From positions 2,304,001 to 2,368,000 of the forward strand of contig CAWGAA010000001.1 in NCBI GenBank assembly GCA_963820525.1: a DNA stretch of 64,000 bases, written 5' to 3'. Of the stretch, positions 2,063-34,113 are shown in pieces. This DNA comes from an uncultured Spirochaetota bacterium (GTDB lineage Bacteria; Spirochaetota; Spirochaetia; SZUA-6; Fen-1364). The stretch's first letter is position 1, and each line of letters starts with the position of its first letter. The position numbers and the translations under genes were made by a program. Under the pieces are notes generated by a model. It saw only the letters and a program-made list of their open reading frames with translations. It made no database searches and had not been told where the DNA came from.

Positions 2063-2968
2063 TCAGATGGCGCCGAGGGCCGCCTGGAAGCGGGCCTTGC
2101 GCGCGGCAGGGGCGGGGGCGGCGGGAGCCGCTTTGCCGATGGCGCCCTGCACGTCCTTGATGCGGTCTTCGGGGTCGGGGTGGGTCTTGGCAAAGTCGAC
2201 CCCTCCCGGCTTGAGCTTCTTTTCCATGACCTTGAGCATGCGCACGAGGGCCTGGGGATCGTAGCCGACCTTCTGGAGAATGACCACGGCCTGATGGTCG
2301 GCCTCGGACTCCTGGGCGCGCGAGTAGCCCGAATTGACCAGCGTTGAGGTGATATCCGTGATTGAACCCTCGAAGTCGGCGGTGAGCTGTGCCACCTCCT
2401 CGGGGCTCGCCATCTCCGCGGCAGTTATCGCCGTGCTGGTGAGCGCGGATGTGATGCGGGAGGTCTTGATCGCCTTCAGGGCGTGATCCTTGACCACGTG
2501 GCCGATCTCGTGCGCCAGGATGACCGCCGCCTCGTCCTCGTTCTCTGCGCAGCGCAGCAGGCCGCGCGTCACCAGAATCAGCCCGCCGGGAGCGGCGAAG
2601 GCGTTGATCTCATCGGAATCGAGGATCTGGAAGTGATATCCGCCGAAGGTTTCGGGACGGTCGCTGGCGAGCGCCAGGCTGGTGCCCAGGAGGTTGAGGT
2701 AGGCATTGGCCTTCGCGTCCCCGTAGGCGGTGTACTTGTTGAGAATGACGGCTGCCACCGCGCGGCCGATGTAGTATTCCTGCTCCGGGGTGATGTCCTC
2801 GAAGACCGCCTCTGCGCTCTTGTTGATTGAGGACGCCTGCCCCTCGCTGATACTGCCCGTCGCCACGCCCACCGTGGTGATCGCCTTGCTGATGTCTCCC
2901 AGGCTTTCGCAGCCGGAAACAAAGAACGCCAGGAAAACGAGCAGAAAGAGCGCGCATATCGTTTTCAC
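2063..2968 (-). CDS. M48-family zinc metallopeptidase, lipoprotein
   Basis: GTG start overlaps the upstream stop (GTGA). Lipobox FVSGC. Motifs INAFAAPGG, HEIGH, YSRAQESEAD, THP. Confidence 0.92.
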   Translation of the reverse strand: MKTICALFLLVFLAFFVSGCESLGDISKAITTVGVATGSISEGQASSINKSAEAVFEDITPEQEYYIGRAVAAVILNKYTAYGDAKANAYLNLLGTSLALASDRPETFGGYHFQILDSDEINAFAAPGGLILVTRGLLRCAENEDEAAVILAHEIGHVVKDHALKAIKTSRITSALTSTAITAAEMASPEEVAQLTADFEGSITDITSTLVNSGYSRAQESEADHQAVVILQKVGYDPQALVRMLKVMEKKLKPGGVDFAKTHPDPEDRIKDVQGAIGKAAPAAPAPAARKARFQAALGAI

Positions 2969-3444
2969 CGATCGCCTCCCAGGTCCCCTGACAGCCCACC
3001 CTTGGACAGAAAGGCGGCGACCTGGTCGGGGGTGACTATGTAGGTGGTCGCCATGCGGTCCACCCACGTGTAGTCCAGCTTCTCGTCGCTCTTGTATTTG
3101 GCCTCCACCTCCTTGTTGAACCCCTTGCCGGCGAGGGCCATCTCTCCGCTCGACGCGATCTGGCTCACGTCCTCGGAGCCCGCCTTGAGCACGTACTTTT
3201 TTGTCGAAAGGGCGGAGAGGCTCACCCATCCCTGCTTGCCGGAAAAGCTCACCTTGGCCCACGCGCCCTGGGTGGACTGGACCTCGACCCGGTCCGTATA
3301 GGCGAGCTTGGCGAGGACTTTCCCCAGGAAGCTTGGCGTGGCCCTGATGAACGTCTCCTTGACCGAAACGCTCATCTCATCGCCAAAGGCGGCGGCCGTA
3401 CAGATGAGCAGAACGGCTGCCCACACAATCCGCAATCGCGACAT
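2965..3444 (-). CDS. Secreted bacterial SH3-domain protein
   Basis: Signal peptide MSRLRIVWAAVLLICTAAAFG. SH3b-like IRATPSFLGKVL...WAKV...QGWV. C-terminal ALAGKGF segment. Confidence 0.8.
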   Translation of the reverse strand: MSRLRIVWAAVLLICTAAAFGDEMSVSVKETFIRATPSFLGKVLAKLAYTDRVEVQSTQGAWAKVSFSGKQGWVSLSALSTKKYVLKAGSEDVSQIASSGEMALAGKGFNKEVEAKYKSDEKLDYTWVDRMATTYIVTPDQVAAFLSKGGLSGDLGGDR

Positions 3445-3554
3445 GGGGACCCTCCTCTCGCCGGGCGCGGCGATCCTTCCCGCCATGGTAGCGAGAATCC
3501 CGCCCGTTGTCATCATTCTCTTGATTTTTTCCCGTCTTTCTGTACACCAGAAGC

Positions 3555-4208
3555 GTGACGGCCAAAGAGAGGAAAGAGGCGCTCCTCGGCATCGGCCAGA
3601 GGCTCTTCGCGCTCCAGGGGTATCGCGATGTGAGCGTCCGGGACATCACGGAGGCGGCGGGCCTGGGGACGGCCAGCTTCTACACCTACTTCCCCAGCAA
3701 GGAATCCTTCTACGCCCAGATCATCGACCGGCTCGAGCAGAGAGAGATCAAGGAAATCGAGAGGCGGGTGGGCGGGTTCCAGTCCCCGCTCAACAAGCTG
3801 AAAGCCCTCTTCCGCTCCATCATGAGCGACATGCAGAGAAACGAGATCCTCCGCGGCGTCTACGCCCGGGAGAAGCGCTTCCTGTACCCCGGCCTGGCAG
3901 AGGGCACCCTGCGTGAAACCGGCCTTCCCGCCTACTTCGAGGGGCTGGTCGAGAAGATACTGGCGGAAGGCGCCAGGAAGGGGATCTTCCGCACGAGCGT
4001 GTTCAGGAATCCCAAGCAGATGCTGCTCGCCATCTTCAGATCGCTTCTCATGGACAGCCGGCCCGGCAGCGCCGAGGATCTCATCTCGGACGTGTCCCTG
4101 CTGGTGGAGCGCGGGATAAAGAGGTGGCTGCGCCTGCGCATGAGGGATGAGAGGCTGGACAGACGGGCCTCGCGGATCCCCGGAAGCCCTGAAAAACAAA
4201 CCGAATAA
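3555..4208 (+). CDS. TetR/AcrR-family transcriptional regulator
   Basis: N-terminal [32 protein letters not shown]. Confidence 0.93.
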
Positions 4209-4366
4209 TCCATTCGAATATTCGGCCCGCATTCCCCGCGCGCGGCCCCGGGGGCGGGATTCTCGCGAAAAACCCCGCGTTTTTCGATGATTTTTGGTAT
4301 TCCCGGCGCATTCTGTTGACATTGACATCGACGAATGACCAGATGGTTTTTGCGGGGAGGAAGAAT

Positions 4367-5158
4367 GTGATCGACGTTCTGGCCATCCGTGGTGGAAACG
4401 ACAAATCAGGCATGCCTGAGAACGTGCGGGAAGTGTGCATCCGCCGGGGAGAGATCGTCGGGGTGGTGGGGCCGACGGGAAGCGGAAAAAGCTCCCTGAT
4501 CGCGGATATCGAGCAGCTGGCCCAGGGCGACACACCGACGCGCAGGCACATCCTGATCAACGGCCGCGAGCCGCTGCGGGAGGAGCGCACAGACCCGAAG
4601 AGAAAAATAGTGGCCGAGCTCTCGCAGAACATGAACTTCCTTGCCAACATGTCGGTGGGCGATTTCCTGCGGCTCCACGCCAAGTGCAGGAGGGCTCACG
4701 GCGTGGAGGCCGCTCACGTCATCGAGCTTGCCAACGGGCTCACGGGAGAGCCGATCAGGGAGGACGAGGAGCTCACCATCCTGAGCGGCGGCCAATCCCG
4801 CGCGCTCATGGTGGCCGACGTGGCGCTCATCAGCGACTCCCCCATCGTATTGGTGGACGAGATCGAGAACGCAGGGATCAAGAAGCACGATGCCCTGAGG
4901 CTCCTCTCGGGCCACGGAAAGATCGTTCTCGTGGTGACCCACGACCCGGTGCTCGCCCTGATGGCCGAGCGGCGGATCATCATGAAAATGGGCGGCATGG
5001 CGAAGGTGGCCGAGACCTCCCGGGGAGAGAAGATCCTCGCCCAGAGGCTTCGGAGGATGGACGAATGGATGCTCACCCTGCGGGAGCTGGTCCGGCAGGG
5101 CGAGCCGCTTGAGGACGTGACCCATCTCGCGGGGGTGCAATCGGGGATCATGGCGTGA
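4367..5158 (+). CDS. Soluble ABC-type ATPase (no partner permease)
   Basis: GTG 4367 follows a GGGGAGG SD. Walker A GPTGSGKS, signature LSGGQ, Walker B VLVDE, VTHD. No TM partner nearby. Confidence 0.85.
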
Positions 5159-5856
5159 AGCTCATCATCGTTGCCGGGACGCCCGGCTCCGGCAAAACCT
5201 CCATCCTGGTGAACGCCGTGAGGCTCCTCAAGGCGGGCGGACGGTCGGTTTCCGTGGTGAAGATCGACTGCCTTGCCACCGACGACGACGAGCGCTACGC
5301 GCGGCTTTCCATCCCGACTCTCGTCGGGCTCGCCAAGGACGTCTGCCCGGATCACTACACCGTCTACAATATGGAGGAAATCCTCCAGTGGGCCAACGGC
5401 CTCTCGACGGAGTTCCTCCTCGTGGAGACGGCGGGGCTCTGCCACAGGTGCGCGCCCTACACTTCCGGATCCGCCGGGGTCTGCGTCATCGATGCCACCT
5501 CGGGACCAAACACCCCCTTGAAGGTCGGCCCCCTGTTGAGCACGGCCAACATCATCGTGATCACCAAGGGAGACGTCATCTCACAGGCGGAGAGGGAGAT
5601 CTTCCGGGAGCGCCTCTTGGAGATGAATCCCCGGGCAATGCTGATCGACGCCAATGGCTTAAGCGGTCAGGGCGCAGCCGAGCTCGTGGCGCTTGTCCGG
5701 GACTGGCCGGAGGTGAATCTGGAAGACGAGCGGCTGCGGCACACGGCTCCGCTTTCCGTATGCACCCTCTGCGCGGGAGAGACCCGGGTGGCGCGGGAGC
5801 ACCACCGGGGGATCCTGCGGCGCATCGACGGTTTCCAGTCCTACACGGGTGAGTGA
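5155..5856 (+). CDS. G3E-family (HypB/UreG/CobW-like) P-loop GTPase, putative metallochaperone
   Basis: [14 protein letters not shown] (compare UreG CPH), [11 protein letters not shown]4-like TKGD, C-terminal CTLC. Confidence 0.85.
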
Positions 5857-6523
5857 AGTGAAGAGTGACCCCGCCCGGCACCTCCCCGGCCACAACTGCG
5901 GCGCATGCGGCCACGCGCGCTGCGACTCTTTCGCCGCCGCGCTCGCGGAGGGCAGGGCGGGCGTCACGGACTGCCTCGTTCTCCAGCAGGAACGCTACAG
6001 CGGCCAAAGGAGGCTCCTGGAAGAGCTTTTCGGGGGCCGGGAACGGGAGCGGGTGGGACCACGGCCCGAAAAACCCGTGGGGCTGATAGACGGATACGAG
6101 GCGGATTTCGTTCTCGCTCCCCTTCGGGGGGAGGGATCGTGCCGGGAGATTCTCATGCAGGTGACTCCTTCGGCGGTGGGCGCCGGGGACGTGATTCGCT
6201 ACAGGCCCTTGGGATGCCCGGTCACCCATTTCGCGCGGATCATAGAAAAAAGAGACGGGCTTCTCGTGGTGCATGTTGTTGGCCCGCGGCACAGGCTCGG
6301 GGACGAGAGCTTCAACTTTGCGGAAATCGGCCTGTGCATGGTGATCGGTTTCGAAGGCGAGGTCCGGGGCACCCCGCCCGCGGTGGGCGAGACGGTGCGG
6401 TTCATGCCGGCCGAGTGCATGATGCAGAAGGTCCATTCCGGCGTCGTGGTGAGCTGTGAAGGAAAGAGAGTGCGACTCGAAGGGATAGACCTGAAGGTCT
6501 GGGCCCCCCCGGTGAAAAGATGA
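5849..6523 (+). CDS. Fe-S-binding protein (N-terminal LPGxNCGxCG 4Fe-4S domain) with Cys/His-rich C-terminal part
   Basis: [14 protein letters not shown]...DC is an RnfB/AcsC-type FeS domain. Additional Cys/His motifs SCRE, GCPVTH, GLC, CMMQKVH. Confidence 0.8.
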
Positions 6524-7809
6524 ATCGCCATTACCACCTCTCGTGCGTGGCTTGCGGAAAGGCGCACGAGGACTCGAAAGAGGGTTTCTTCCTGGACTGC
6601 ACGGAGGAGCATCCCCCTTCCCTGCTTCGGGCGGTCTACAACAGAAAGGATTTCAACGTCAGGGAAGACCTCAGCGGAATCTTCCGCTATCTCGACTGGC
6701 TTCCCGTTCGAAGGTCTCTGGAATGCGGCGGCCGCCCCGTGGTCTACAGGAGCGAGCGGCTCGCCGGGAAGGTGGGCCTCGAGAGGCTGTTCGTCGCTTT
6801 CAGCGGCTACTGGCCCGAGCGGGGCGCGGGGATGGAGACATGCAGCTTCAAGGAGCTTGAGGCCCTGGCCGTTCTTGCCCGAATCCCCCTTGAAAGCGAG
6901 AAAAGCCTCGTGGTTTCCTCGGCGGGCAACACAGCCCGCGCCTTTCTCCAGATAGCGTCCCTCAATCGCATCCCCATCCTGGTTGTCGTTCCCGAGTCCG
7001 CGCTCCCCGACATGTGGATGACCGTGGAGAGGCACCCCGTCATCAGGCTGGCCGTCGTGAAGGGCAATGCCGACTACCTGGACGCCATCGAGCTGGGCAA
7101 TGCGATCGCCACCCTCGACGGCTTCCACCCCGAGGGGGGAGCCCGGAACATCGCCCGGCGTGACGGCATGGGCACGGTGCTGCTCTCCGCGGTGGAAGAG
7201 CTGGGTGAGATTCCCGCGCATTATTTCCAGGCCGTGGGAAGCGGGACGGGGGCAATCGCGGCCTGGGAGATGGCGGTGAGGCTCACAGCGGACGGCAGAT
7301 TCGGCTCGCGCGGAATGAGGCTGCACCTGGTGCAGAACGAGCCTTTCGCCATCATGACCCGCGCCTGGCAGGCGGGAAGCAGGGAGCTCCCCCAAACGGA
7401 TCCCCTCGAGGCGAAGAAAAAGATCGCCCTGATGCATTCCCGCGTGCTCTCCAACCGGAAGCCTCCCTATGGAATCGCCGGCGGAGTGTTCGACGCTCTT
7501 TCGGACACCGGTGGGCTGATGTATTCGGTTTCCAATGAGGAGGCGCGGGAGGCGGGCGGCCTCTTCGAATCCCTGGAGGGCGTCGATCTCGACCCCGCGG
7601 CAGAGGTGGCCCTCGCCGGAATGATCCAGGCCGTAAAGGCGGGAAGCGTGAATCCGGAAGAGACGGTGCTGCTCAACGTCACCGGCGGGGGGAGCGCACG
7701 GCTGGCGGCGGAGGGCAGAGCGCGGAAGGTGGAGCCTGACTTCATTTTCACGCCGGAGGACGCGAAGAGGATTCGAAGCGTTGAAACCCTGTTGATCAAG
7801 GCGAGCTGA
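6520..7809 (+). CDS. Cysteate synthase (PLP, threonine-synthase-like, methanogen type)
   Basis: FSGYWPERGA..ETCSFKELEA (PLP Lys111), SSAGNT, EGGARNIARRDGMG, YFQAVGSGTG, VLSNRKPPY, LLNVTGGG match my recollection of the cysteate synthase family. Confidence 0.88.
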   Translation: MNRHYHLSCVACGKAHEDSKEGFFLDCTEEHPPSLLRAVYNRKDFNVREDLSGIFRYLDWLPVRRSLECGGRPVVYRSERLAGKVGLERLFVAFSGYWPERGAGMETCSFKELEALAVLARIPLESEKSLVVSSAGNTARAFLQIASLNRIPILVVVPESALPDMWMTVERHPVIRLAVVKGNADYLDAIELGNAIATLDGFHPEGGARNIARRDGMGTVLLSAVEELGEIPAHYFQAVGSGTGAIAAWEMAVRLTADGRFGSRGMRLHLVQNEPFAIMTRAWQAGSRELPQTDPLEAKKKIALMHSRVLSNRKPPYGIAGGVFDALSDTGGLMYSVSNEEAREAGGLFESLEGVDLDPAAEVALAGMIQAVKAGSVNPEETVLLNVTGGGSARLAAEGRARKVEPDFIFTPEDAKRIRSVETLLIKAS

Positions 7810-7823
7810 GGAGGTCCGGCTTC

Positions 7824-9068
7824 ATGGTTGATCTGTTCGACAAGTGCAGGGGAGAGGGGGGGTATTTCGGCGCCTTCCGAGTCAAGGATGACATGTACTA
7901 TTCCCGGCCCGTTCTGGAAGGAACCCCGGGGCCCCGGATGACCTTTCAGGGAAAAGAAGTGGTCGTGTGGGCCATCAACAACTACCTCGGGATGGCGGGA
8001 AACGCCGAGGTGAAAAAGGCCGCCGCCGCATCCCTGGAGCGGTGGGGCACCTACACCCCGATGGGCTCCCTGATGCTCACGGGCAACACCGAGGCCCACA
8101 TGCGGCTTGAGCGCCTGCTTTCCGAATTCGTCGGAAAGCAGGCCGCAAACCTCTTCAACTACGGCTACCTCGGGGTCATCGGAACCATCAGCGCCCTGGT
8201 GGGGCCCGAGGACGTGATCGTCATGGACCGCCTCAGCCACGCAAGTATCGTGGACGGGGTGGTCCTCGCCTCGGCCGGCAGGCGCTTCCGGCCCTTCAAG
8301 CACAATGACCTCGACAACCTCGAGTTCCATCTCAAGGGGGCAAACCGGGACAGGAAGGGCGGCATCCTCATCGTCACCGAAGGGGTGTACGGGATGAGGG
8401 GAGACCTGGCCGACCTCCCGGGCATCTGCGCCCTGAAGGAGAAGTACGGGGCGCGCCTGTTCGTTGACGACGCGCACGGCTTCGGCGTGGTAGGGGAGAA
8501 CGGGCGCGGGATCGGGGAGCACTTCGGCGTGCAGGAGAGGATCGACCTGTACTTCTCCACCTTCGCCAAGTCTTTTGCCGCAATCGGAGGCTTCACGGCC
8601 GGGGAAGAGGAGCCGATCCGCTACATCAAGTACAACGCCCGCACCAACGTGTTCGCCAAGAGCCTCCCCATGGTCTTCGTCGATGCGATAGCGACCTCAC
8701 TCGAGGTGATCAAGAGCAGGCCGGAGCTTCGTCGGCGCATGTGGCGGATCTCGGAAAGGCTTCAGAAGGGCCTCACGGACCTCGGCTACGACATCGGAGA
8801 CACCAGGACACCCATCACCCCCGTGTACGTGCCGGCAGGCGACGTTCAGACCGCCATGGCGATGATCCGGATGCTCCGGGAGGAATACGGGATCTTCGTT
8901 TCCGGGGTCATGTACCCCGTGGTCCCGCCCGGGGTGGTCATGTTCCGGATGATTCCCACCGCCTCCCACACGGAAGAGGACGTGGACAGGACCCTCTCCG
9001 GGTTCAAGAGCATGCGAGACCGGCTGAAGCTGGACTTGAGCCAGAAGCCCTCGCTGAAGAACAGGTAG
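7824..9068 (+). CDS. capB: Alpha-oxoamine synthase, cysteate C-acyltransferase (CapB/SulA) type
   Basis: NNYLG, SHASIVDG, VDDAHG, YFSTFAKS (PLP Lys249) and KYNARTNVFAKSLPM (Lys279, where SPT/BioF have FS[AT]), RMIPTASHT. Lies directly after the cysteate synthase. Confidence 0.8.
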   Translation: MVDLFDKCRGEGGYFGAFRVKDDMYYSRPVLEGTPGPRMTFQGKEVVVWAINNYLGMAGNAEVKKAAAASLERWGTYTPMGSLMLTGNTEAHMRLERLLSEFVGKQAANLFNYGYLGVIGTISALVGPEDVIVMDRLSHASIVDGVVLASAGRRFRPFKHNDLDNLEFHLKGANRDRKGGILIVTEGVYGMRGDLADLPGICALKEKYGARLFVDDAHGFGVVGENGRGIGEHFGVQERIDLYFSTFAKSFAAIGGFTAGEEEPIRYIKYNARTNVFAKSLPMVFVDAIATSLEVIKSRPELRRRMWRISERLQKGLTDLGYDIGDTRTPITPVYVPAGDVQTAMAMIRMLREEYGIFVSGVMYPVVPPGVVMFRMIPTASHTEEDVDRTLSGFKSMRDRLKLDLSQKPSLKNR

Positions 9069-9165
9069 ATCAGGGCTCACGTTGAAGGCGCGGGCCCGTG
9101 TGCCGCAGCGAGAAAAAACGGGCGCGCCAGCCATGGGGCGCCCGCTGCACGCCCGCTGCTCTTCC

Positions 9166-9194
9166 TTGACACGCGGCCGCGATTCAAGGACACT
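9166..9194 (+). promoter_or_regulatory. Putative sigma70 promoter of pst operon 1
   Basis: TTGACA-17 bp-GACACT. Confidence 0.5.
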
Positions 9195-9205
9195 TGCCGC
9201 TGATC

Positions 9206-10132
9206 ATGAGTCAGCGGCGGTCGGACAGGTTTGCCGGGAGGCCATGGCAGTCTCCCACGCTCATGGTATGCGCCTTTTTGCTTGCCGCCCTGCTCTCCTC
9301 CGGCTGCGGTCCGAGCCGCGGCGAGGTCGCCTCCACCTCAGCTTCGGCCAACTCCACAATCCAGATCACGGGGTCCGACACCCTGGTCAACCTGGCCCTT
9401 GCATGGGCCGAAGCCTACATGAACCTGCACCCCGACGTTCGTATCTCCGTGACGGGAGGCGGCTCGGGCACGGGCATCGCCTCCCTGATAAACGGCACGA
9501 TCAACATCGCCGACGCGTCCCGCGAAATGACGGCGGAAGAGATCGCCGCGGCGCGGAAGAACGGAATCGATCCCGTTCGATTCACGGTGGCCCTCGATGC
9601 CATCGCCGTCGTTGTCAACCTCGAGAACCCCGTCACGGGCCTTACCCTGCCCCAGCTCTCGCAAATCTACACGGCCAGGATCTCCACCTGGAGTGAAGTA
9701 GGCGGCGACAACCGTCCCATCGTGCTTCTCTCACGCGAGTCCAACTCGGGAACCTACGTATACTTCCTCGAGCGCGTCGTGCGCCTGGGAGAGAAAGGCA
9801 ACAGCGCCCTGTTCTCCCCCGACACCCTGCTGATGCCCTCATCCGAGGGGATAAGCGTCGAGGTGAAGCAGAACCCGAACGCCATCGGCTATGACGGCCT
9901 CGGCTACGTCACCCCCCAACAGAAGGTTGTCGCGGTCGCTTCCGAGCCGGGCAGGCCGTTCGTTCTTCCCTCCTCGAAGACGGTCCTGGACGGCTCGTAC
10001 CCGATCGCCCGGCCCCTGTTCATGTACACGGCGGGCGAGCCCTCCGGGGCGACCAGGCAGTATCTGGACTGGATCATGACCGACGGCCAGGCCATCGTGA
10101 AAAACCTCGGCTTCGTGCCGCTCAAGGAGTAG
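9206..10132 (+). CDS. pstS: Phosphate ABC transporter substrate-binding lipoprotein (PstS family)
   Basis: Lipobox LSSGC, ITGSDT, GGGSGTGI, SRESNSGT, YPIARPL. Start uncertain (9194, 9206 or 9266). Confidence 0.95.
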   Translation: MSQRRSDRFAGRPWQSPTLMVCAFLLAALLSSGCGPSRGEVASTSASANSTIQITGSDTLVNLALAWAEAYMNLHPDVRISVTGGGSGTGIASLINGTINIADASREMTAEEIAAARKNGIDPVRFTVALDAIAVVVNLENPVTGLTLPQLSQIYTARISTWSEVGGDNRPIVLLSRESNSGTYVYFLERVVRLGEKGNSALFSPDTLLMPSSEGISVEVKQNPNAIGYDGLGYVTPQQKVVAVASEPGRPFVLPSSKTVLDGSYPIARPLFMYTAGEPSGATRQYLDWIMTDGQAIVKNLGFVPLKE

Positions 10133-10137
10133 GGAAA

Positions 10138-11049
10138 ATGAGCGCGGCGAAGGACCGGCAGTCAACAAGGGCGCGCCGATGGGAAATCGCCATCGAAGCC
10201 TTCATCCGGGCCCTTGGCTTCTCCACCGTCGCCTTGGTCTGCCTTATCTTTTTGTTCCTGCTTCGCGAAGGGCTTCCCGCCTTCTTCGAGGTCGCCCCCG
10301 GAAATCTTTTTAGCTCCCACTGGTATCCCACTTTCGGCTTCTTCGGCACCCTGCCGCTCATCCTGGGCTCCATTCTCGTCACGCTGGTGGCCATCGTGAT
10401 CGCGCTGCCCCTGGGGGTGGCCACCGCCGTATTCGTCCGGGAGGTGGCGCCGGGGTGGGTCCGCGAGATCCTCAAGCCGATGATCGAGATCCTGGCCGGA
10501 ATTCCCTCCGTGGTGCTGGGATTCTTCGGCATGACCATCATCGCCCCGTTCGTGCGCCAGGCCCTCGGCGCGCCCACGGGCCTTACGGCGTTCACCGGCG
10601 CCCTCGTGCTCGCCTACATGAGCCTTCCCACGATCATCAGCGTGGCCGAAGACGCGCTGGACGCGGTTCCCAAGGGCTACCGGGACGCGGGCCTGGCGAT
10701 GGGAGCGACGAAGTGGCAGACGATCTGGCGGGTGGTGGTCCCCGCGGGACGCTCCGGGATCCTCACCGCCGTCATGCTCGGCATGGGGCGCGCCATCGGA
10801 GAGACCATGGCGGTGATGATGGTGACGGGAAACGCGGCGCGCATGCCCCTCGATTTTTCCTCGCTCATGGAGCCGGTGCGAACCATGACGGCCACCATCG
10901 CCGCGGAGATGGGTGAGGTGGCCCGGGGGAGCACCCACTACCACACCCTGTTCGCCATCGGAATCATCCTCTTCCTCATCACCTTCGCCACGAACCTCGC
11001 CGCCGCATCGGCGATCTTCAAGAAGCGGCGCCAGGGAGGGCTTCGCTGA
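10138..11049 (+). CDS. pstC: Phosphate ABC transporter permease PstC
   Basis: [23 protein letters not shown]. Confidence 0.96.
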   Translation: MSAAKDRQSTRARRWEIAIEAFIRALGFSTVALVCLIFLFLLREGLPAFFEVAPGNLFSSHWYPTFGFFGTLPLILGSILVTLVAIVIALPLGVATAVFVREVAPGWVREILKPMIEILAGIPSVVLGFFGMTIIAPFVRQALGAPTGLTAFTGALVLAYMSLPTIISVAEDALDAVPKGYRDAGLAMGATKWQTIWRVVVPAGRSGILTAVMLGMGRAIGETMAVMMVTGNAARMPLDFSSLMEPVRTMTATIAAEMGEVARGSTHYHTLFAIGIILFLITFATNLAAASAIFKKRRQGGLR

Positions 11050-11894
11050 TGAACCGCTACCTGGTCCAGCGCCTCGGTTTCATCCTCCTGGGCGCGATTG
11101 CCCTGATCGTGGTCATCCCCATCCTGATCGTGGTGGCAACGATCGTGGCCAAGGGCCTGGGGGCGATGAGCTGGGAGTTCCTCTCCTCCATGCCCCGGGG
11201 CGGCATGAAGGAGGGGGGCATCCTTCCCGCCATTGTCGGGACGGTCCTCCTCACCCTGGGCTGCGCGGCGGCCGCGGTGCCCGTCGGGGTTGGAGGGGCG
11301 ATCTATCTTTCCGAATACGCGCGCGACACGCGGCTCACGCGGGCGATACGCCTTGCCATCGTGAACCTGGCGGGAATCCCCTCGATCGTGTACGGGCTCT
11401 TCGGGCTGGGGATGTTCGTCCTGTTCTTCCGCTTCGGCGCCTCGATCCTTGCCGGGTCGCTGACCCTGGCGATCATGACCCTTCCGGTGATCATCTCCAC
11501 GGGAGAGGAGGCGCTGCGCTCCGTGCCCGTGGAGTTTCGAACCGTGTCGGCCAGCCTCGGCGGCACGCGCTGGCAGGGCATCCAGAACATCGTGCTACCC
11601 CAGGCTCTTCCCGGAATCATCACGGGAGTGATCCTGGGGCTCCTCCGCGCCGCGGGAGAAACGGCCCCCATCCTTTTCACGGTGGCCGCCTTCTACCTTC
11701 CCCGCCTGCCCAGCTCGCCGTTCGACCAGACCATGGCCCTGCCCTATCACCTCTATGTCATCAGCACGCAGGTGCCCGGCATGCCCTCCAAGGTTCAGTA
11801 CGGGACCGCCCTCGTGCTCCTGGCCTTCGTTCTCTCGCTCAACGTGGTCGCCACTCTCATCAGGAGGCATTTCCGGAGGAAGAGGCAGTGGTAG
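11049..11894 (+). CDS. pstA: Phosphate ABC transporter permease PstA
   Basis: NLAGIPSIVYGLFG, RAAGETAPI. Confidence 0.96.
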   Translation: MNRYLVQRLGFILLGAIALIVVIPILIVVATIVAKGLGAMSWEFLSSMPRGGMKEGGILPAIVGTVLLTLGCAAAAVPVGVGGAIYLSEYARDTRLTRAIRLAIVNLAGIPSIVYGLFGLGMFVLFFRFGASILAGSLTLAIMTLPVIISTGEEALRSVPVEFRTVSASLGGTRWQGIQNIVLPQALPGIITGVILGLLRAAGETAPILFTVAAFYLPRLPSSPFDQTMALPYHLYVISTQVPGMPSKVQYGTALVLLAFVLSLNVVATLIRRHFRRKRQW

Positions 11895-11905
11895 AGGGCA
11901 GATCC

Positions 11906-12664
11906 GTGGTCAACCCCAAGATCATCATTGAAAGCCTTTCCTACTCCTATGGAGGCAAGTCCTCGCTCGAGGATATCAGCCTCTCCATCCCGGGCAAGGC
12001 GGTCACCGTCTTTTTCGGCCCGGCCGGCGGCGGAAAGACCACCCTGATGCGCCTGATCAACAGGCTCAACGACCTGGTGGGAGAAACCCGCATGACGGGA
12101 AGGATCCTCCTCGACGGTGAGGATATCTATGCGCCGAACACCGACGTGACGCGCCTGCGCCGCCTCGTGGGCATGGTCTTCGCCCTGCCCCTCCCCCTGC
12201 CCGGCACGATCCGGGAGAACGTCGTCTACGGCCCACGCCTTGCGGGAACGCGGAACAAGGCAACGCTTGAGGGAATCATCGAGCGAAGCCTCGCCCAGGC
12301 GGCACTCTGGGGCGAGGTGAAAGACCGCCTGGACAGCCCCGCTTCGAGCCTCTCCGGGGGCCAGCAGCAGAGGTTGTGCATCGCGCGCAGCCTCGCCCTG
12401 GAGCCGGAAGTGCTCCTCCTCGACGAGCCGACCTCCGGCCTGGATCCGATCTCGACGGCCAAGGTGGAAGAATCCCTCCTGGAGCTCAAGAAGAGCTACG
12501 CCATCATCATGGTTCCCCACAGCGTCGGGCAGGCGGCCCGGATCGCGGATTACGCCGCCTTCTTCCTCATGGGCCGGCTGGTGGAGTTCGACGAGGGTCC
12601 CACCGTCTTCACCTCTCCTCGGGAGAAGCAGACCGAGGACTACATCACGGGCAGGTTCGGGTAG
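11906..12664 (+). CDS. pstB: Phosphate ABC transporter ATPase PstB (divergent copy)
   Basis: [41 protein letters not shown]. True start lies inside the longer ORF 10913..12664. Confidence 0.92.
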   Translation: MVNPKIIIESLSYSYGGKSSLEDISLSIPGKAVTVFFGPAGGGKTTLMRLINRLNDLVGETRMTGRILLDGEDIYAPNTDVTRLRRLVGMVFALPLPLPGTIRENVVYGPRLAGTRNKATLEGIIERSLAQAALWGEVKDRLDSPASSLSGGQQQRLCIARSLALEPEVLLLDEPTSGLDPISTAKVEESLLELKKSYAIIMVPHSVGQAARIADYAAFFLMGRLVEFDEGPTVFTSPREKQTEDYITGRFG

Positions 12665-12667
12665 GCC

Positions 12668-13435
12668 ATGGGTGGAATATCGGTTGATGGGCTTTCTTTC
12701 TCCTATGGCAGCCGACTGGCGCTGTCCGACGTGCGGGTCGAGATCGGGGAGCGGAGGATCACCGCCCTGATCGGCCCGTCGGGCTGCGGCAAGTCCACGT
12801 TCCTCAGGTGCCTCAACCGGATGAACGACACGATCCCCTCTTCCCGCGTGAAGGGGAGCGTGAAGCTGGACGGCCAGGACATCTATGCTCCGGGCACCGA
12901 CGTGGTGGCGCTTCGAAGGCGCGTGGGCATGGTCTTCCAGAGACCCAACCCCTTCCCCCAGTCCGTGTTCGACAACGTCGCCTTCGGCCCCCGCGTGCTG
13001 GGCACGCACAGCGGCAGGGAGCTCGCCGACGCGGTGGAGCAGAGCCTGCGGGGCGCAGACCTGTGGAACGAGGTGAAAGACTCGATGTCCCAGGACGCCC
13101 TTGCCCTATCGCTGGGCCAGCAGCAGCGGCTGTGCATCGCGCGCGTGATCGCCGTGAAGCCCGAGGTGATCCTCATGGACGAGCCCTGCTCGGCCCTCGA
13201 CCCCATTGGCACGCTTCGCATCGAGGAGCTGATGCGGACCCTGGTGAACGACTACACCATCGTCATCGTGACGCACAACATGCAGCAGGCGGCGCGGGTT
13301 TCCGACTACACCGGCTTCTTCTGGCTGAACGAGGAGAGGGCGGGAATACTGGCGGAGTACGGGCCCACGGAGGAGCTTTTCACGAGCCCGCGGGACAAGC
13401 GTACTGAAGACTACATCACCGGCCGATACGGATAA
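12668..13435 (+). CDS. pstB: Phosphate ABC transporter ATPase PstB
   Basis: [44 protein letters not shown]. Confidence 0.96.
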
Positions 13436-13450
13436 CAGGAGGGCATTGTC

Positions 13451-14122
13451 ATGCCACGGGAAAGATTCGAGCACGAACTGCAGCGCCTGCAGGCGGATGT
13501 CCTCGCGCTGGGACATGTGGCGCAGAAAGCGCTGGTTGATTCCGTCGAGACCCTCAGGCTGCAGGATCTGGACAAGGCCCGCGCGCTCATCGAGGGAGAC
13601 CGCGCCATCAATGAGAAGCGCTTCGCACTGGAAAACGAGGTCATCACCCTGATCGCGACCCAGCAGCCGATGGCGGGAGACCTCCGCATCCTCGCCGAGG
13701 TGCTGGAGCTCGTCACCGAGATGGAGCGCATCGCGGACTACGCCAAGGGCATCGCGAACATCGCGCTCATGATCGGCAAGGAGCCCCTCCTGAAGCCCCT
13801 GGTCGACATTCCCCGCATGGCCGCCAAGGCGAGCGATATGCTGGGCCGGGCGCTGGACGCGTTCATCCGCAGGGACGTGGATCTGGCCCGCGCCATCCCC
13901 AAGGAAGACGTCGAGGTGGACGCCCTCTACGAGCAGATCTACAGGGAGCTGGTCACCTACATCATGCAAAACCCGAAGAACATCGATCAGGCCACCCGCC
14001 TCACCTGGGTGGCCCACAACCTGGAGCGCGTTGCCGACAGGGTGGGAAACATCTGCGAAAGGGTGGTTTTCTCCGTCACGGGCAAGATCGAGGAGCTGGC
14101 GGGGCCCCCGGAGACGCAATAG
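13451..14122 (+). CDS. phoU: Phosphate signalling protein PhoU
   Basis: QQPMAGDLR, EMERIADY, LERVADR. Confidence 0.96.
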   Translation: MPRERFEHELQRLQADVLALGHVAQKALVDSVETLRLQDLDKARALIEGDRAINEKRFALENEVITLIATQQPMAGDLRILAEVLELVTEMERIADYAKGIANIALMIGKEPLLKPLVDIPRMAAKASDMLGRALDAFIRRDVDLARAIPKEDVEVDALYEQIYRELVTYIMQNPKNIDQATRLTWVAHNLERVADRVGNICERVVFSVTGKIEELAGPPETQ

Positions 14123-19644: not shown

Positions 19645-22600
19645 TTACTGTTCCTTCTTATGATAGACCAGATTGAAGCGGCTCCCCGCATACCCGATGG
19701 CGATGTCCGCGGATTGCGCAACTCCCGCGACGTAGCGGCCGATGTTCAGCGTAGAGCTGGTCACGATGTTCGTTCTGTGGTCGCGCACGGGATCGTTCAC
19801 GGGGATAGTACCGTATTCCCAGTCGTCGGCGCTCGATCCGGTCCCACTCTTCACCCACGCTATCTTCAATCCACCCAGGGTGCCGACTGAAGAAGCGTTC
19901 TCGTACGATACGTACGGTATGGCGGTAGTTCCAATATACATCAGGGAAATCCTGCTCCAGGGCCCAACCGATTCTACGGAGTCGATGGTTACCGGGGCAT
20001 CGAACGTATATTGCACCCCGGCGCCGGTCCCATCAACGTCATGACCATGGATGAAGACGAGGTTCCCGTCCGCGTTCTGGAAGGTCATAATGAACAGGTC
20101 GCCATACGTCGAAGATGCCGCGTCGTTGCTGTCCACCACCATGCTGACGTAGCTTCCCAGGAAGCTGTTTACGGGCTGGATGAGATCGATCTCCCACTGA
20201 TGAGTAGCGCTCGGAGCGTAGGGGGCGGTAGCATTGAAATTCCCGACGGGTTGCGTGTTCCAGCCGCGGGCAATCTTCAGCGTCTTGTTGGTGTTGCTGT
20301 AGTACACGATGACGGGAACGCCGTCATCCGGGTCTATGCCGATATCGCTCCACAACCCGACGTCCTCGCTGGAGGCGTACTTGTAGTCAGGGGCTGCGCC
20401 GGCCAGGAAATCGTAGCCATCCACGACGACCTGGTTGTCGGTGAGGTGGTTCTGTCCGATGAACGTCCCCGTTCCGCCGGTGACCACCCCGTATTTCAGG
20501 CATTTGCTCCACCCGTCGTAGTACGAGATGTACTTGACGTCGTTCGCCGGAGCGGCTCCCACCTTCACCGTGAACCGCGGGTTCTTGAACTGGAAGAGCA
20601 TTTCATCCTGGCCGTCGGAGTGATTCGCTGGAGGAGGATCCGAGTTGCCTTCCCGCTCGATTTGCCGTGAGCTTCCCGTGTCGATGAAAGAGTTGAGACC
20701 CTGCCATGTCCCGGTCATATTCTGGTTTTCCAGCACAACGGAATGCCTGACGTCTACTCCTGCGTTGTTGCGGACGAACAGATCCGTATACTCGGCCGGG
20801 TCGACACCGCTCCAGATTTCGGTAGCGGCGCCTCCATAGGAGTTCGGCATGCTGTAGTACGACGCGCCGGAGTTATAGCTGGACCAGGCGCCGTAGACGT
20901 GGCTATTGGTGGGATTGATCGACATTGACGGCCACTCGGGTGCATCAGAGCCCGCGAAATAATCCCCGACGTCGAACACTGACATGTAGCGGTCGTCGTC
21001 CCAGAGGCCCGAACCGCCTTCGTTGTTATATTCCGCAGAATTGGAGTCGGTATTGTTAATGGAGGGCTGGCCGTTGACAACCACCTTCAAGTAGCCGGAG
21101 TTCACCATTTGCGTTCCGGTGAAGGTGAGGGAGGTATACGGCGATCCACTGCCGCTCACGGTCACAGTATTCTGCTGGACGGAGACCTTTACATCAGCGC
21201 CGTCGCTGGTGAAGTCGACCGCAGGGCCGCCGGAGGTGAGCGATACCTGGAAGTAATTCGCGGCCGTATTGACGACATAGTATCCGACGTTCGATGAGAT
21301 CCCTGTCGGAAGCGTTGTCGCGGTAATCCACACTATCGTGCCGTTGGCGAGCCCGTGCGCTGTGGCATTCAGTCTATTGTCTCCATTGGTTGCGACGACG
21401 AGGAACGGCGTGCGGTTGATCGTGACGGTGGGAGTGTCGGTCCCGTCGCCGAGGTTGAATCCGGTCATGGTAAGGTTGGTCTCGCCCGCGTTCACGAGGA
21501 ACTTCCCATACTTTGTGCGGTTCGTCGGATACGGGCTCTGGCGGGTGATGCTCGTGATGTACGGAACCACGTCCACCTGGTAGGCGGGCTTGTTCGGGGG
21601 CAGGGTAATGGAGTAGCTCGTGCTGCCTACCGCAACCGGGACCGCAAGCTCGATGACGCCGCTTCCTGAGTCATAGTCCGCTACCGTGGTGTTGGTAGAA
21701 CCGACGGTGATCGGCAGGTTGTCCCAGAGGGTCGTTCTACCCTGGAGATTCACGTCCGAAATGTGGGTCGTGTCCGCGCGCGTGCCGGTCCCGCTCAGCG
21801 TCGTGTTGTCCGCCGTCACGGCTGAACGGGTGGCTGCCTTGTCCTCTGCCACGATCCTGATGTTCTGATCGTTCACAGCGATGTGGGAGATCCGCGCCGA
21901 GTCCCAATCCAACCGCCAGACAACCGAGTGCCCGGCCTGCGAGAACGTGGAGGACACCACCGTGAACTTCCAACCGTTCGTGCCAAAGGTGTCTGACGGC
22001 ACCATGAACCCGTTCATACTGGTCCAGTTCGCGGGCGGGGAGCCCAAGGGATCGTAGTTGGCGATCCGGTAGTATGTCTGGCCTCCGATGCTGGTGGTGG
22101 GGATGGTCGCGGCGTGCGGGAAGGTGAAGTTGTCGATATGCATCCAGATGTAAACCACTCCCTGATCGTCGCCCGTCGTGCCTCGTATGGATATCTTCCC
22201 CGAAACGTCGGGATCCGAATCGTCGATTCCCGCGAGCTCGATGTGCCCGTTTGTTTTCAAGTTCAGGTACAACGAATTGTCCGAGGCGCTGTTCCAGAAG
22301 AAGTTGTTGAGATAGGCCACCGGAGCTTTCGAGTCCGTGACCTTGATCTTGCAGACGATGTCCCTCTGGATGTGCTGGCTGTCGGTGAGCCTTGTCGTCT
22401 CCTCGGTGGTATCCCAGATGACGGATCGGAAGGTCCTCGTCCCGTCCGTGATGGCCGAAAGGGCCGTGGCATCCAGGAGTAGGGAAGTGATCGGCGTGCC
22501 GGTGCCGCCGTTTCTTACGACGTAGGTTCCTACTGCCGAGAGGCTTCCGGTGTTCGGGCCCGCGCTCACCTGGGTCTCCAGAATCCCGTTTCCGCCCGTG

Positions 22601-25600
22601 ATCTCGTACAGGATGTACATCGGAGCCGCTTTCACCTTGTAGCTGGTGGAGACCGAGGTCAGGTACGTGACGGGGTTGGTGCCCTGCGTGAAGAGGAACT
22701 TCTCTCGCTCAGTGCTGCTGGGCGTTTCATCGATGGACCCGTTCTTGTCCAGGTCCGTTCCCAGCCACATGGCGCCAAGCTGAGGCCCGCTGTTCTGCAC
22801 GGAGGTGGCAATTTGATAGTGGGCGGCGTTCCCCGCTTCATCGTAGACGACGTAGTGGATCTCGATGGGCCCGTCCGGGATATTCGCCGAGTTGACGTCC
22901 ACGTACCAGTCGTAGGTGTCTCCCACGGTCTGCCTGAGCTTCTCCACGTAGCCGTCGCCGTCGTCGTTGAGCACGGAGGCACCGTCGTGCGACTCCGTTA
23001 TGTTCTTGTGATCGATTGAGATCGCCAGGTCTATGGAGTACGCCGTGAGCCCCTGGTCCACGACCCCGTCCGCCCAGGTGATTGTGCCGCTTCCAGGGGT
23101 CCAGGTGTCGATTGTCCTGATGGTGCCGCCGATCGCGATTTTCTGACCCTTGTTGATCAAAGCGGCCGCCGGCGCGGCGATAAGGCTTGCGTCCACAAGG
23201 CTCGTCTGCGAGGGTCGCGTCCCGGTGCCCGTCCGCACGGGCTCGTATCCGCTGAAGGCGAAGTCGCTCAAATACGCCTTCGTGTTGCCGGCCAGGGGGT
23301 TGTACATGCGGTCGTTGGCGGGGTTCCCCATGCCTCTTCGGATGAAGTAGACCTCGACCCTGTCCACGTCGGAGCCTTCATCGAGAGCGCTCCCCGTGAG
23401 CTTGCACCATCCGTTGTCCTGAACCATGAACTTGGTGAGGTTGTCGAAATCCGGTCCTGTAGGCGCCGTGGGCGGCTTGGTGTCTATGGTGATCCGCATG
23501 TCCAAAGAGCTGGACTTGGGCTGCGCCGCCACGTCCACGGCGGCAAGAGTGAAGTTGAGCGGGACGACGGAGTTTCCCGGAGAATCGATTTCGACGTTCA
23601 GGTCTATCCGCTTGTAGAGCCCGTTCGTGTATGGGGGAACGGACGGGGTAACCAGCGTGAATGAACCGGTGTCCCCGGTGTAGACGCTGCCGTTCCAGAA
23701 GATCGACTTCGAGATGGGGGCGGAAAGCGACACGCTGGACAAAGCGGATTCGTTTTCAATGCTCCCCTTGAGGTACCAGTTGCCCTTAATATACATTCCC
23801 GCGGTATATGTAACCGTGGTGGTGGGATCTCCCACTTTTTCCAGATACAGGGGAACGGTGGAGCCGATCTTCGGTACGTTCTTGTCCACAAGAATGGTCC
23901 TGGGCTGTGACCACGGCCCGAGGGTCCCGTTGATGTCCTTGGCCCGGACGCGGAAGCTGATCGGATTGGGCGTCTCGCCCGAGGGATCGAATTCCTGCGA
24001 GGAGTTGATGACTTCGTACCAGTTGTTGGAACCGATCACCGTGTGGCCGTTTCCGCCGTTGTACCAGTCCGTGCCGCCCGCCGTGTCGGCTGCGGTAAAC
24101 TGCCCGTCATTGTTGCAGTCGATCTGCATGGCGACTTCCGCCACGCCGTCGTCGTCGATGGCGCTTCCATAGATGCGGATGGAGCCGCCGAGGGTCATGT
24201 TGGCGTCCGGATAGGAGACGCTCGCTACCGGTTTGTCGCCGTTGGGGTCTATCCTGAGGCTGTAGGGGTAGATGGTGAAGTCGGTCTCGCCGATGGACAC
24301 GTCTCCCGACCAGGAGACGGTCCCGCTGGCCGGAGTCCACCCCGTGATGAGCCGCGCGTTGTTTCCGATGAACACGACCTGGCCCACCGCAATCCTGGTA
24401 TTGTTCTGGATGGCCGCGGAGCTGAGGCTGGTCGGGTTGGAGCGCGTCGCTCCGGCGCCCGTAATGGGCAGGCTCTCCGTGCTGTTGCCCGCCTTGTCGG
24501 TGGCTCTCAAGACCATGGGGAACACGAAGAGGTCTACCCCGGTGTACGAATCGTGAATGGCGGAGACGTCGGTGTACACCTCGTATTCCTGGCTGGTTCC
24601 CACCGCCACATCGGCGCCCGTCCAGGTGACGGTGCCGGCGGCCGGGGTCCAGGTTGCGATTACGCGATATGCGCCATTGATCTTGATCGTATTGCCCACC
24701 GCGGCATTGGGATTGCTGACCAGGGCTGCGGCGGTGAAGCTCTTCTCCTCTCCGGTCGTCCTGTCCACCAATCCCGAGTACATGGAGGAGTAATTGTCGA
24801 TCTTGCTGGGGTTCAGGAAAGGTATCTCCCAGGTGTAGACGGTGCCTCCAACAGCCGTTGGAGACTGGCTCGTGTAGTTCTTGCCCAGTCGATACATGAC
24901 GGTGTCCAGCCCGGAGCCGGAGTCGCTGGCCGTCCCTTTCACGGTGACCTCGCCGTTGACAATCGCGGCATTCACCGGGGTCAGGAAGCCGAGGCTCGGG
25001 GCGGAGTTATCCACAAGAATGGTCCGGGTTGCCGTGGAGGCCAGGCCTGATCCGTCCGTGACCGTCGCAACGACGTCCTTGGCGCCGTCGGAAAGCGCGG
25101 TAACGTTCGTGACCCCGGTTTCATACGGGGTGTATCCCGGCCACGCCACGGGGCTTCCCACGACGCTTGCCGTTACGTTTCCGATTCCGGGGATGGCCAC
25201 GACAACGGAAGCGACGCCGTTTTCATCCCGCGCGGAGTACCGGATGTTGAACCGTCCCGTGGGCCCGCCAAATGGCATGTTCGTCGTGAGGCTCTTGGCG
25301 GCCAGGTGCACGAAAACGCCGCTTCCCGCGCTGGTGATGTCCACCACGGGGCCGCCCGATGTGGCAGAGACCTGGATCTGGGTGGACGTTGGGACCGCGA
25401 CGACGAAGTAGGTGGTGTTTGCCGAGATCCCGCCCGGAAGCCCCGTTGCGCTGAAGGTTACCGTGTTGCCCGAGGCAAGCCCGTGCGCGGAATCAGTGGT
25501 GATAATGTCGGAGGTGTCGTTGGCCGTTGCAGGAAGACAGGTTTCGATGGTGATCGTCGGATCGACTTCAGGAGTCTTCGTGTCCACCTTGAAGGTCACA

Positions 25601-33837: not shown

Positions 33838-34113
33838 ACCGGCCTCCTCCCGATGACGGCGCTCCCGGTTTCCGGCAAGTCGAGGCTGTTTCCCTGTTCT
33901 TAACCTCGCCTGCCGCCCGCCCACATACAGTATCGTCAGCTCGCTCACCGGGCCCACATGGGCAAACCATTAAAGTCTACCCCGTTTTTCTTCGATTTCA
34001 TGAACAAATTCCTTAACATCCGTTAAGCGCTATAATCCCCCGAAACGTCGAGAATTGATCAGGAGCACGCGGCCCAGCGGGGGAATGAAAAGCAAGGATG
34101 CGCGAGGTATGAT

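Follow-up and report, generated by a model that had tools for sequence, protein, structure and literature searches.

Sulfonolipids are treated as a trait of Bacteroidota. They are known as lipids of gliding motility and as signals to choanoflagellates and to TLR4, and in the gut they are markers of Alistipes and Odoribacter. The first enzyme of the Bacteroidota pathway to capnine, CapA, is said to be a cystathionine-beta-synthase-like enzyme. Here, we analyze a 64,000-nucleotide stretch of contig CAWGAA010000001.1 (positions 2,304,001 to 2,368,000 of the forward strand; hereafter the window, whose coordinates we use throughout) from an uncultured member of the Spirochaetota. In this window two adjacent genes, a predicted cysteate synthase (6520-7809, + strand) and a predicted cysteate-C-fatty-acyl transferase (CFAT; 7824-9068, + strand), would carry out the opening two steps toward capnine-type sulfonolipids.

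The condensing enzymes CapB and SulA belong to the alpha-oxoamine synthases, a family that also includes serine palmitoyltransferase (SPT), Kbl, BioF and 5-aminolevulinate synthase (ALAS). A lysine at the position of SulA Lys281 and CapB Lys280 was proposed by Radka et al. as a marker separating sulfonolipid from sphingolipid condensing enzymes (PMC9304779). The catalytic and cysteate-contacting residues of CapB are described as N52, F113-G114-Y115, H139, C141, D216, H219, T247 and K250, in a paper that detects the C16 condensation product at m/z 364.0 (PMC13692747). Cysteate synthesis has also been placed in methanogen loci, where a trio of an ATPase, a Ni-binding GTPase and a COG2000 Fe-S protein colocalizes with coenzyme M biosynthesis genes and is described as having no known role (PMC12068725). 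Our full-text literature searches, with supplements outside their scope, returned no paper linking sulfonolipid, capnine or cysteate synthase to spirochaetes, and the matches that mention both concern Bacteroidota lipids.

A predicted synthase-acyltransferase pair and its conservation

The 429-residue protein of 6520-7809 (ATG start) matches TIGR03844, the model for the archaeal, threonine-synthase-derived type of cysteate synthase, with 514.7 bits, which is 190 bits over the cut-off of 324.9 and covers profile positions 1-395 of 398. The same protein scores no higher than 69.6 bits with threonine synthase models. The best solved structure is PDB 9k3c, named "Cysteate synthase" (396.2 bits over residues 5-424), compared with 46.3 bits for the best threonine synthase, and the TCSFKE motif containing K111 is identical in 9k3c. 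Methanosarcina acetivorans is the one genome of 14 controls to pass the TIGR03844 cut-off. An initial annotation, made from the letters of the window and their open reading frames (ORFs), had called this protein a methanogen (coenzyme M)-type cysteate synthase and proposed the TIGR03844 search; the search agrees with it, and these matches firmly predict an archaeal-type cysteate synthase.

The second gene follows after a spacer of 14 bp (7810-7823, + strand) that carries a GGAGG ribosome-binding site 9 nt before the CFAT ATG, reproducing the ORF pair and the gap as they had been described. Its 414-residue product scores highest against solved cysteate acyltransferases, with 412.8 bits for Capnocytophaga ochracea CapB (PDB 28eh) and 394 bits for Alistipes finegoldii SulA (7u7h), as against 247.4 bits for SPT (3a2b), 226 for Kbl (3tqx), 167 for BioF (5jay) and 166 for ALAS. 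No NCBIfam equivalog model for Kbl, SPT, BioF or ALAS reaches its cut-off on this protein, which is 44-51% identical to Bacteroidota CFATs. Both ORFs of the pair are full length and match their families end to end. In public annotation of spirochaete metagenome-assembled genomes (MAGs), the first gene is labeled "cysteate synthase" and the second "glycine C-acetyltransferase" or a generic aminotransferase.

We placed the condensing enzyme in a quick IQ-TREE phylogeny (LG+G4) of 59 of the 119 alpha-oxoamine synthase rows collected. It contains all of loci L001-L017, 19 Bacteroidota CFAT loci, 14 of 30 SPT-like loci, the genome's own paralogues, and E. coli Kbl and BioF, and leaves out the remaining near-duplicate Bacteroidota rows and the characterized CFAT enzymes themselves. 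"SPT-like" here denotes a best score (463-517 bits) together with Ala at position 279, and not an equivalog match; none of 61 Bacteroidota genomes, drawn as an even sample, gave a match to the SPT model NF047600 over its 640-bit cut-off. The query falls in a CFAT clade of 37 rows (SH-aLRT 100), separate from 15 SPT-like rows, six Kbl rows and one BioF row. This clade divides into a Bacteroidota clade (20 rows, SH-aLRT 100) and a sister clade (17 rows, SH-aLRT 95) that holds the query, further spirochaete rows, and one row each from Clostridia, Eubacteriales, Aminicenantes, Bacillus salacetis, an alphaproteobacterial MAG and a Chitinophagales MAG. The position of the query in this non-Bacteroidota sister clade indicates that the CFAT gene is not a recent import from Bacteroidota. 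Scores and tree thus uphold the earlier proposal of a cysteate acyltransferase, as opposed to SPT, BioF or Kbl, for which a phylogeny had been suggested as the check.

The genome's own paralogues fall outside the CFAT clade, one with E. coli Kbl and one on a long branch with the SPT-like rows. The latter (G000:C2:678901-680092, in L129 at about 6900-8240, - strand) has Ala at the CFAT lysine position and adjoins accC-accD-accA; the C-terminal 73 residues of its homology lie in another frame, an apparent frameshift. Intact SPT-like copies of about 407 residues are widespread in the family, and these spirochaetes may also have a sphingolipid-type enzyme.

The diagnostic residues agree with the tree. 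The protein carries FAKSLPM, and its extra lysine, K279, lies exactly 30 residues beyond the pyridoxal 5'-phosphate (PLP) lysine K249 (in STFAKSF), as had been read from the sequence. Lys occupies position 279 in 37/37 rows of the CFAT clade and in 0/22 others, those being 15 SPT-like rows with Ala (F-S-A or F-A-A), six Kbl rows with Asn and the E. coli BioF row with Thr (Y-S-T); the contrast with an FS[AT] motif in SPT and BioF, drawn in the initial annotation, therefore holds in these rows. Four further positions are specific to the CFAT clade (M80, N112, Y/F113 and E186) and all are present in the query, together with N52, Y113-G114-Y115, H139, D215, H218, T246, K249 and R375. Tyr at 113, which is Phe in CapB, also occurs in five Bacteroidota rows, and CapB C141 is Ser in the query and in 14/17 rows of its subclade; the CapB residue set is otherwise complete. 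One part of the initial annotation is not borne out by the literature, namely that the extra lysine binds the sulfonate. The SulA K281A variant still forms the cysteate aldimine, and its authors assign the lysine a structural role (PMC9304779); in the CapB-cysteate structure the sulfonate is described as hydrogen-bonded to Asn52, His139 and Lys250 (PMC13692747).

The source organism is a free-living wetland spirochaete. The genome around the window comprises 5.05 Mb in four contigs with 60% G+C and is 96.7% complete. It has three matches above cut-off to FlaA, the spirochaete-specific flagellar sheath family, which has none in the 14 control genomes, and the nearest CFAT relatives in named genomes are from Spirochaetaceae and Spirochaetales MAGs (65-76% identity). 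Both lines support the earlier call of a probable spirochaete and point away from a Bacteroidota contig. Near-identical DNA occurs in wetland and freshwater-sediment metagenome contigs, and six runs contain at least half of the sampled words; no RNA run was listed as holding 3500-9200. An independent metagenome contig of 4892 bp spans 3675-8570 and two others, of 2197 and 1775 bp, span the junction between CFAT and the downstream pstS; since such contigs run across the gene junctions, misassembly does not explain the arrangement. Several metagenomes hold near-identical copies of the pair with few substitutions and intact frames.

We looked for the pair in 40 relatives from the same family and order, and mapped genes of related loci with tblastn. 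A CFAT orthologue is present in 22 of them (61-75% identical, at least 535 bits); beyond these, CFAT is split into two contig-end pieces in one relative and carries four in-frame TGA codons in another. The synthase exceeds its cut-off in 19/40, with broken copies in two more, and in 18 of these 19 genomes it immediately precedes CFAT, with both on one strand and contig, the two genes of the remaining genome being on different short contigs. Among the relatives the synthase never occurs without CFAT; CFAT occurs without the synthase in G026, G027, G037 and the named locus L002. The same adjacency recurs in eight named spirochaete loci. A CFAT orthologue is present in 22 of 300 additional, evenly sampled Spirochaetota genomes; it is concentrated in one family (15/17), and none was found in the three largest families of that sample (0/28, 0/45 and 0/38). 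Broken pairs occur in relatives G014 and G024. The G024 pair (G024:C15:253716-256185), with in-frame TGA once in the synthase and four times in CFAT, may be a decaying pair or belong to another organism's contig.

Reductase, sulfite supply and neighboring genes

In nine relatives an orthologous short-chain dehydrogenase/reductase (SDR) gene starts within about 25 bases of the CFAT end, giving the order synthase-CFAT-SDR, and an SDR also lies 3' of CFAT in Clostridia, Aminicenantes, Chitinophagales and alphaproteobacterial MAG loci. The order synthase-CFAT(-SDR) is thus kept across a spirochaete order. The source genome has a sole close homologue of the CFAT-linked SDR, at G000:C2:306812-307666, which is 50-57% identical to the relatives' copies and 40-42% identical to the CFAT-adjacent SDRs of other phyla. 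Several SDRs of one organism have been described as having ketocapnine reductase activity (mLife paper, PMC11211663). A GNAT-like gene lies 3' of the SDR in a single locus, L008, from a Clostridia MAG.

The SDR homologue of the source genome sits in a gene cluster at G000:C2:301200-310250 (L128 3207-12242, - strand) with genes for a long acyl-AMP/CoA ligase, Kbl, a Zn-dependent Tdh-like dehydrogenase, a class-III aminotransferase and a DUF819 membrane protein. The opposite strand carries a DUF362/4Fe-4S gene.

Upstream of the synthase lies a compact trio of genes on the + strand. The first (4316-5158) encodes a soluble ABC-type ATPase (PF00005, 58.4 bits; no equivalog reached), the second (5155-5856) a HypB/CobW-like (G3E) GTPase (PF02492, 47.2 bits; TIGR00073 hypB at 45 bits, below its cut-off), and the third (5849-6523) an Fe-S protein with an N-terminal PF04060 cluster domain (47.9 bits). 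The ATPase and GTPase genes overlap by four bases, the GTPase and Fe-S genes by eight, and the Fe-S stop overlaps the synthase ATG at 6520-6523, an arrangement that clearly predicts translational coupling of the trio to the synthase. The ATPase is 72-77% identical in four relatives and 45% in locus L124 of relative G016. As a lead, the ESM Atlas clusters closest to the Fe-S protein consist of 225-residue PF04060 proteins that match it in length and are 88% archaeal (score 0.97). In G016, L124 carries a diverged second trio (45, 41 and 28% identical) near a second synthase-CFAT copy; this trio has a gene for a class-V aminotransferase of the cysteine-desulfurase family inserted and cystathionine beta-synthase and gamma-lyase genes upstream.

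The synthase would consume sulfite, and relatives from other families have sulfate-activation genes next to the pair. In L001, L003, L004 and L005 cysH is divergent from the synthase; L009 has a cysD-cysNC-synthase-CFAT operon; and the pair of G030, like the lone CFAT of G037, has cysH no more than about 7 kb away. No cysH was found in the 24 genomes of the source genome's family (0/24). It is conceivable, although we regard it as doubtful, that the trio forms a module that supplies or handles sulfite when anaerobes make sulfonates. On that reading its predicted coupling to a lipid-pathway cysteate synthase, in a genome in which no CysH, CysD, ATP sulfurylase or sulfite-reductase domain was found, would link the trio to the use of sulfite instead of to coenzyme M. 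Against a strict supply role, the trio (66-83% identical) is on other contigs than the pair in five relatives, no sulfonate gene adjoins it in three annotated loci (L150-L152), and 10 of 16 synthase-bearing genomes of the family have no trio match at E<=1e-10 and also have no cysH, four of these ten being at least 95% complete. Strict dependence on the trio would already be refuted by those ten genomes.

A TetR-family regulator (3555-4208, + strand; PF00440 TetR_N, 48.1 bits) precedes the trio. Homologues that are 40-47% identical to it flank the pair in L006, L007, L124, L125 and L127 and in L001-L005; the regulator is the third constant member of the locus. An ORF on the opposite strand ("hyp_3513", 3513-4535, - strand) was considered as a conserved neighbor and rejected, its low-complexity translation being the antisense shadow of the TetR gene. 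Two other neighbors recur among related loci: a two-domain protein of the glyoxalase/dioxygenase superfamily of about 353 residues (L001-L005, L009 and L017), and a PanE/ApbA-type ketoreductase that adjoins the TetR gene (L001-L005). Neither the PanE-like nor the glyoxalase-like neighbor of L001-L005 has a homologue in the source genome.

Downstream, a pstS-pstC-pstA-pstB-phoU operon (9194-14122) starts 126 bp past the CFAT stop; a simple scan found no terminator-like site on the + strand between 9068 and 9194, its totals being not above those of shuffled controls. Two apparent ABC ATPase ORFs lie inside the operon, at 10913-12664 and 12668-13435. A link between a phosphorus-free lipid and the phosphate regulon was considered and rejected as a genome-specific adjacency. 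In 17 related loci no pst gene lies beside the pair, where the only pstB-like matches are ABC ATPases at 27-34% identity; a phosphate-sparing role of the pair is purely hypothetical. Elsewhere in the window, genes for a CHASE2-adenylate/guanylate cyclase (3-2054) and an M48 peptidase (2063-3262), both on the - strand, lie upstream of the TetR gene, and a 4770-residue ORF occupies 19645-33957 (- strand).

Proposed pathway and competing explanations

We infer the substrates, the lipid product and the reductase acting in the source genome as follows. The synthase would exchange the phosphate group of O-phospho-L-serine for sulfite, yielding L-cysteate. CFAT would then condense the PLP-cysteate aldimine with a long-chain acyl carrier protein or coenzyme A thioester (acyl-ACP or acyl-CoA), with loss of CO2, to give 3-ketocapnine, which a short-chain dehydrogenase would reduce to capnine, possibly N-acylated afterwards. 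We put the probability that the pair encodes the first two steps of capnine-type sulfonolipid synthesis at roughly three in four, and the organism itself probably makes lipids of this kind.

Several observations weigh against this pathway. No SDR-type reductase homologue was found in the window by tblastn (best E 0.19), as the initial annotation had said of a ketocapnine reductase. In an SDR tree built without long-branch sequences, the sole homologue elsewhere in the genome groups with a set of non-linked paralogues (96/91 support) and not with the CFAT-linked copies, and this paralogue set is also present in the CFAT-less relatives G008 and G022. No N-acyltransferase was identified, and none adjoins the pair in the spirochaete loci that were inspected, with no reference enzyme serving as query. 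The 17-row subclade of the query has no assayed member, the characterized enzymes (CapB, SulA and those of F. johnsoniae, C. gleum and Algoriphagus) presumably all falling in the Bacteroidota sister clade. Position 83 of the query is Leu (codon CTG, 8070-8072) where 57/59 aligned alpha-oxoamine synthases have Arg. Finally, the source genome, at its 96.7% completeness, yielded nothing beyond a 24-bit match to 3'-phosphoadenylyl-sulfate (PAPS) reductase and no CysH, CysD, CysN, ATP sulfurylase or NIR_SIR domain.

These points can be read as signs of a pathway decaying in the source genome, in which the reductase has been lost, Arg83 replaced and no sulfite route kept, so that the pair persists as a remnant next to a recently adjoined pst operon. 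The SDR that follows CFAT in nine relatives is indeed missing here, the near-invariant Arg has changed, and broken pairs occur in G014 and G024. Residue 83, however, is Leu, Met, Ile or Val in 27 of the 120 closest database proteins (76-100% identity) and Arg in 79, and since the hydrophobic state is common to 27 of these 120 it is an inherited, maintained state of a sublineage and not an error; the passages of the CapB and SulA papers that define CFAT residues do not name Arg83 among them. Both ORFs also remain full length with end-to-end profile matches, near-identical copies with intact frames occur in several metagenomes, and the start/stop overlaps with the trio argue for an expressed operon. 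Decay is accordingly a very improbable account of the locus. We give an equally slight chance to the adjacency being incidental, with the synthase serving the synthesis of a soluble sulfonate (coenzyme M-like, sulfopyruvate or taurine) and the oxoamine enzyme taking another amino acid, such as serine for sphingolipids. This type of synthase and the trio are otherwise known from methanogen coenzyme M loci (PMC12068725), and four genomes or loci (G026, G027, G037 and L002) retain CFAT alone. Yet 18 of 19 synthase-bearing relatives keep the two genes adjacent, none has the synthase without CFAT, every CFAT signature residue is present, each SPT-like row has Ala at 279, and the family has a separate SPT-like paralogue.

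A closer competitor accepts both enzymes and differs in the end product: the pair would yield cysteate and 3-ketocapnine or capnine, and the final compound would be a free aminosulfonate that serves as a signal, as an osmolyte-like surfactant or as a precursor of natural products, instead of an N-acylated sulfonolipid of the membrane. It would account for the missing N-acyltransferase beside the pair and for the extra cluster enzymes of relatives, the glyoxalase/dioxygenase-like protein of L001-L005, L009 and L017 and the PanE-like protein of L001-L005. Salinispira pacifica, whose major polar lipids are described as including an unidentified aminolipid (PMC4511686), would also fit free capnine, in which the amine is kept. 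The Bacteroidota acyltransferase is likewise unlinked, however, and capnine is itself a membrane lipid; the chemistry up to capnine is identical in both readings, and the present data do not discriminate between them. We consider a free aminosulfonate unlikely, although less so than decay or incidental adjacency, and favor the capnine-type sulfonolipid pathway.

Implications and comparison with known systems

A variant of the capnine-type pathway in a new phylum is robustly predicted from these genes. If the prediction is true, the synthase-CFAT(-SDR) operon, which is conserved in several free-living spirochaete families, adds a second phylum of sulfonolipid producers, and one whose first enzyme has a different origin. 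It can be tested at once in cultured relatives such as S. pacifica, from which a 73%-identical CFAT is named. The locus would also provide a bacterial, non-methanogen context for the trio of the coenzyme M loci and ease the question of where anaerobes obtain sulfite for sulfonate synthesis.

Compared with the Bacteroidota CapB/SulA/CFAT enzymes, the spirochaete protein has the same fold family and length, aligns end to end, and shares the PLP lysine, the lysine at SulA position 281 and the catalytic residues. It differs in its sister subclade and in having Ser141 for Cys141, Ser82 for Ala82 and Leu83 for Arg. The Bacteroidota CapA-CapB-CapC pathway (Cys-CFAT-KCR) follows the same three-step logic, which is gathered in a single operon in the nine spirochaete relatives; its first enzyme, in contrast, is of another type than the spirochaete TIGR03844 synthase, and the linked reductase is missing in the source genome. 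TIGR03844 gave no match at E<=1e-30 in the 61 sampled Bacteroidota genomes, 21 of them CFAT-bearing, and no match above cut-off in four further named CFAT-bearing Bacteroidota or Bacillus salacetis. Because the model found no match in the sampled CFAT-bearing Bacteroidota but matches M. acetivorans, the spirochaete pathway appears to couple a Bacteroidota-like condensing enzyme with a methanogen-type synthase.

The archaeal coenzyme M pathway II, represented by M. acetivorans MA3297 (TIGR03844, 9k3c), shares with this locus the type of synthase and the adjoining trio, as described in PMC12068725. Here, by contrast, the synthase is bacterial, and its product most likely passes to a lipid-condensing enzyme and not to sulfopyruvate and coenzyme M. 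The trio invites the same comparison: as in the methanogen loci of that report, three proteins of the same kinds are encoded in one unit beside a sulfite-consuming first-step enzyme. Unlike its methanogen counterpart, this trio is bacterial and stands upstream of a predicted lipid pathway, with an Fe-S protein likened to archaeal ones by its PF04060 domain.

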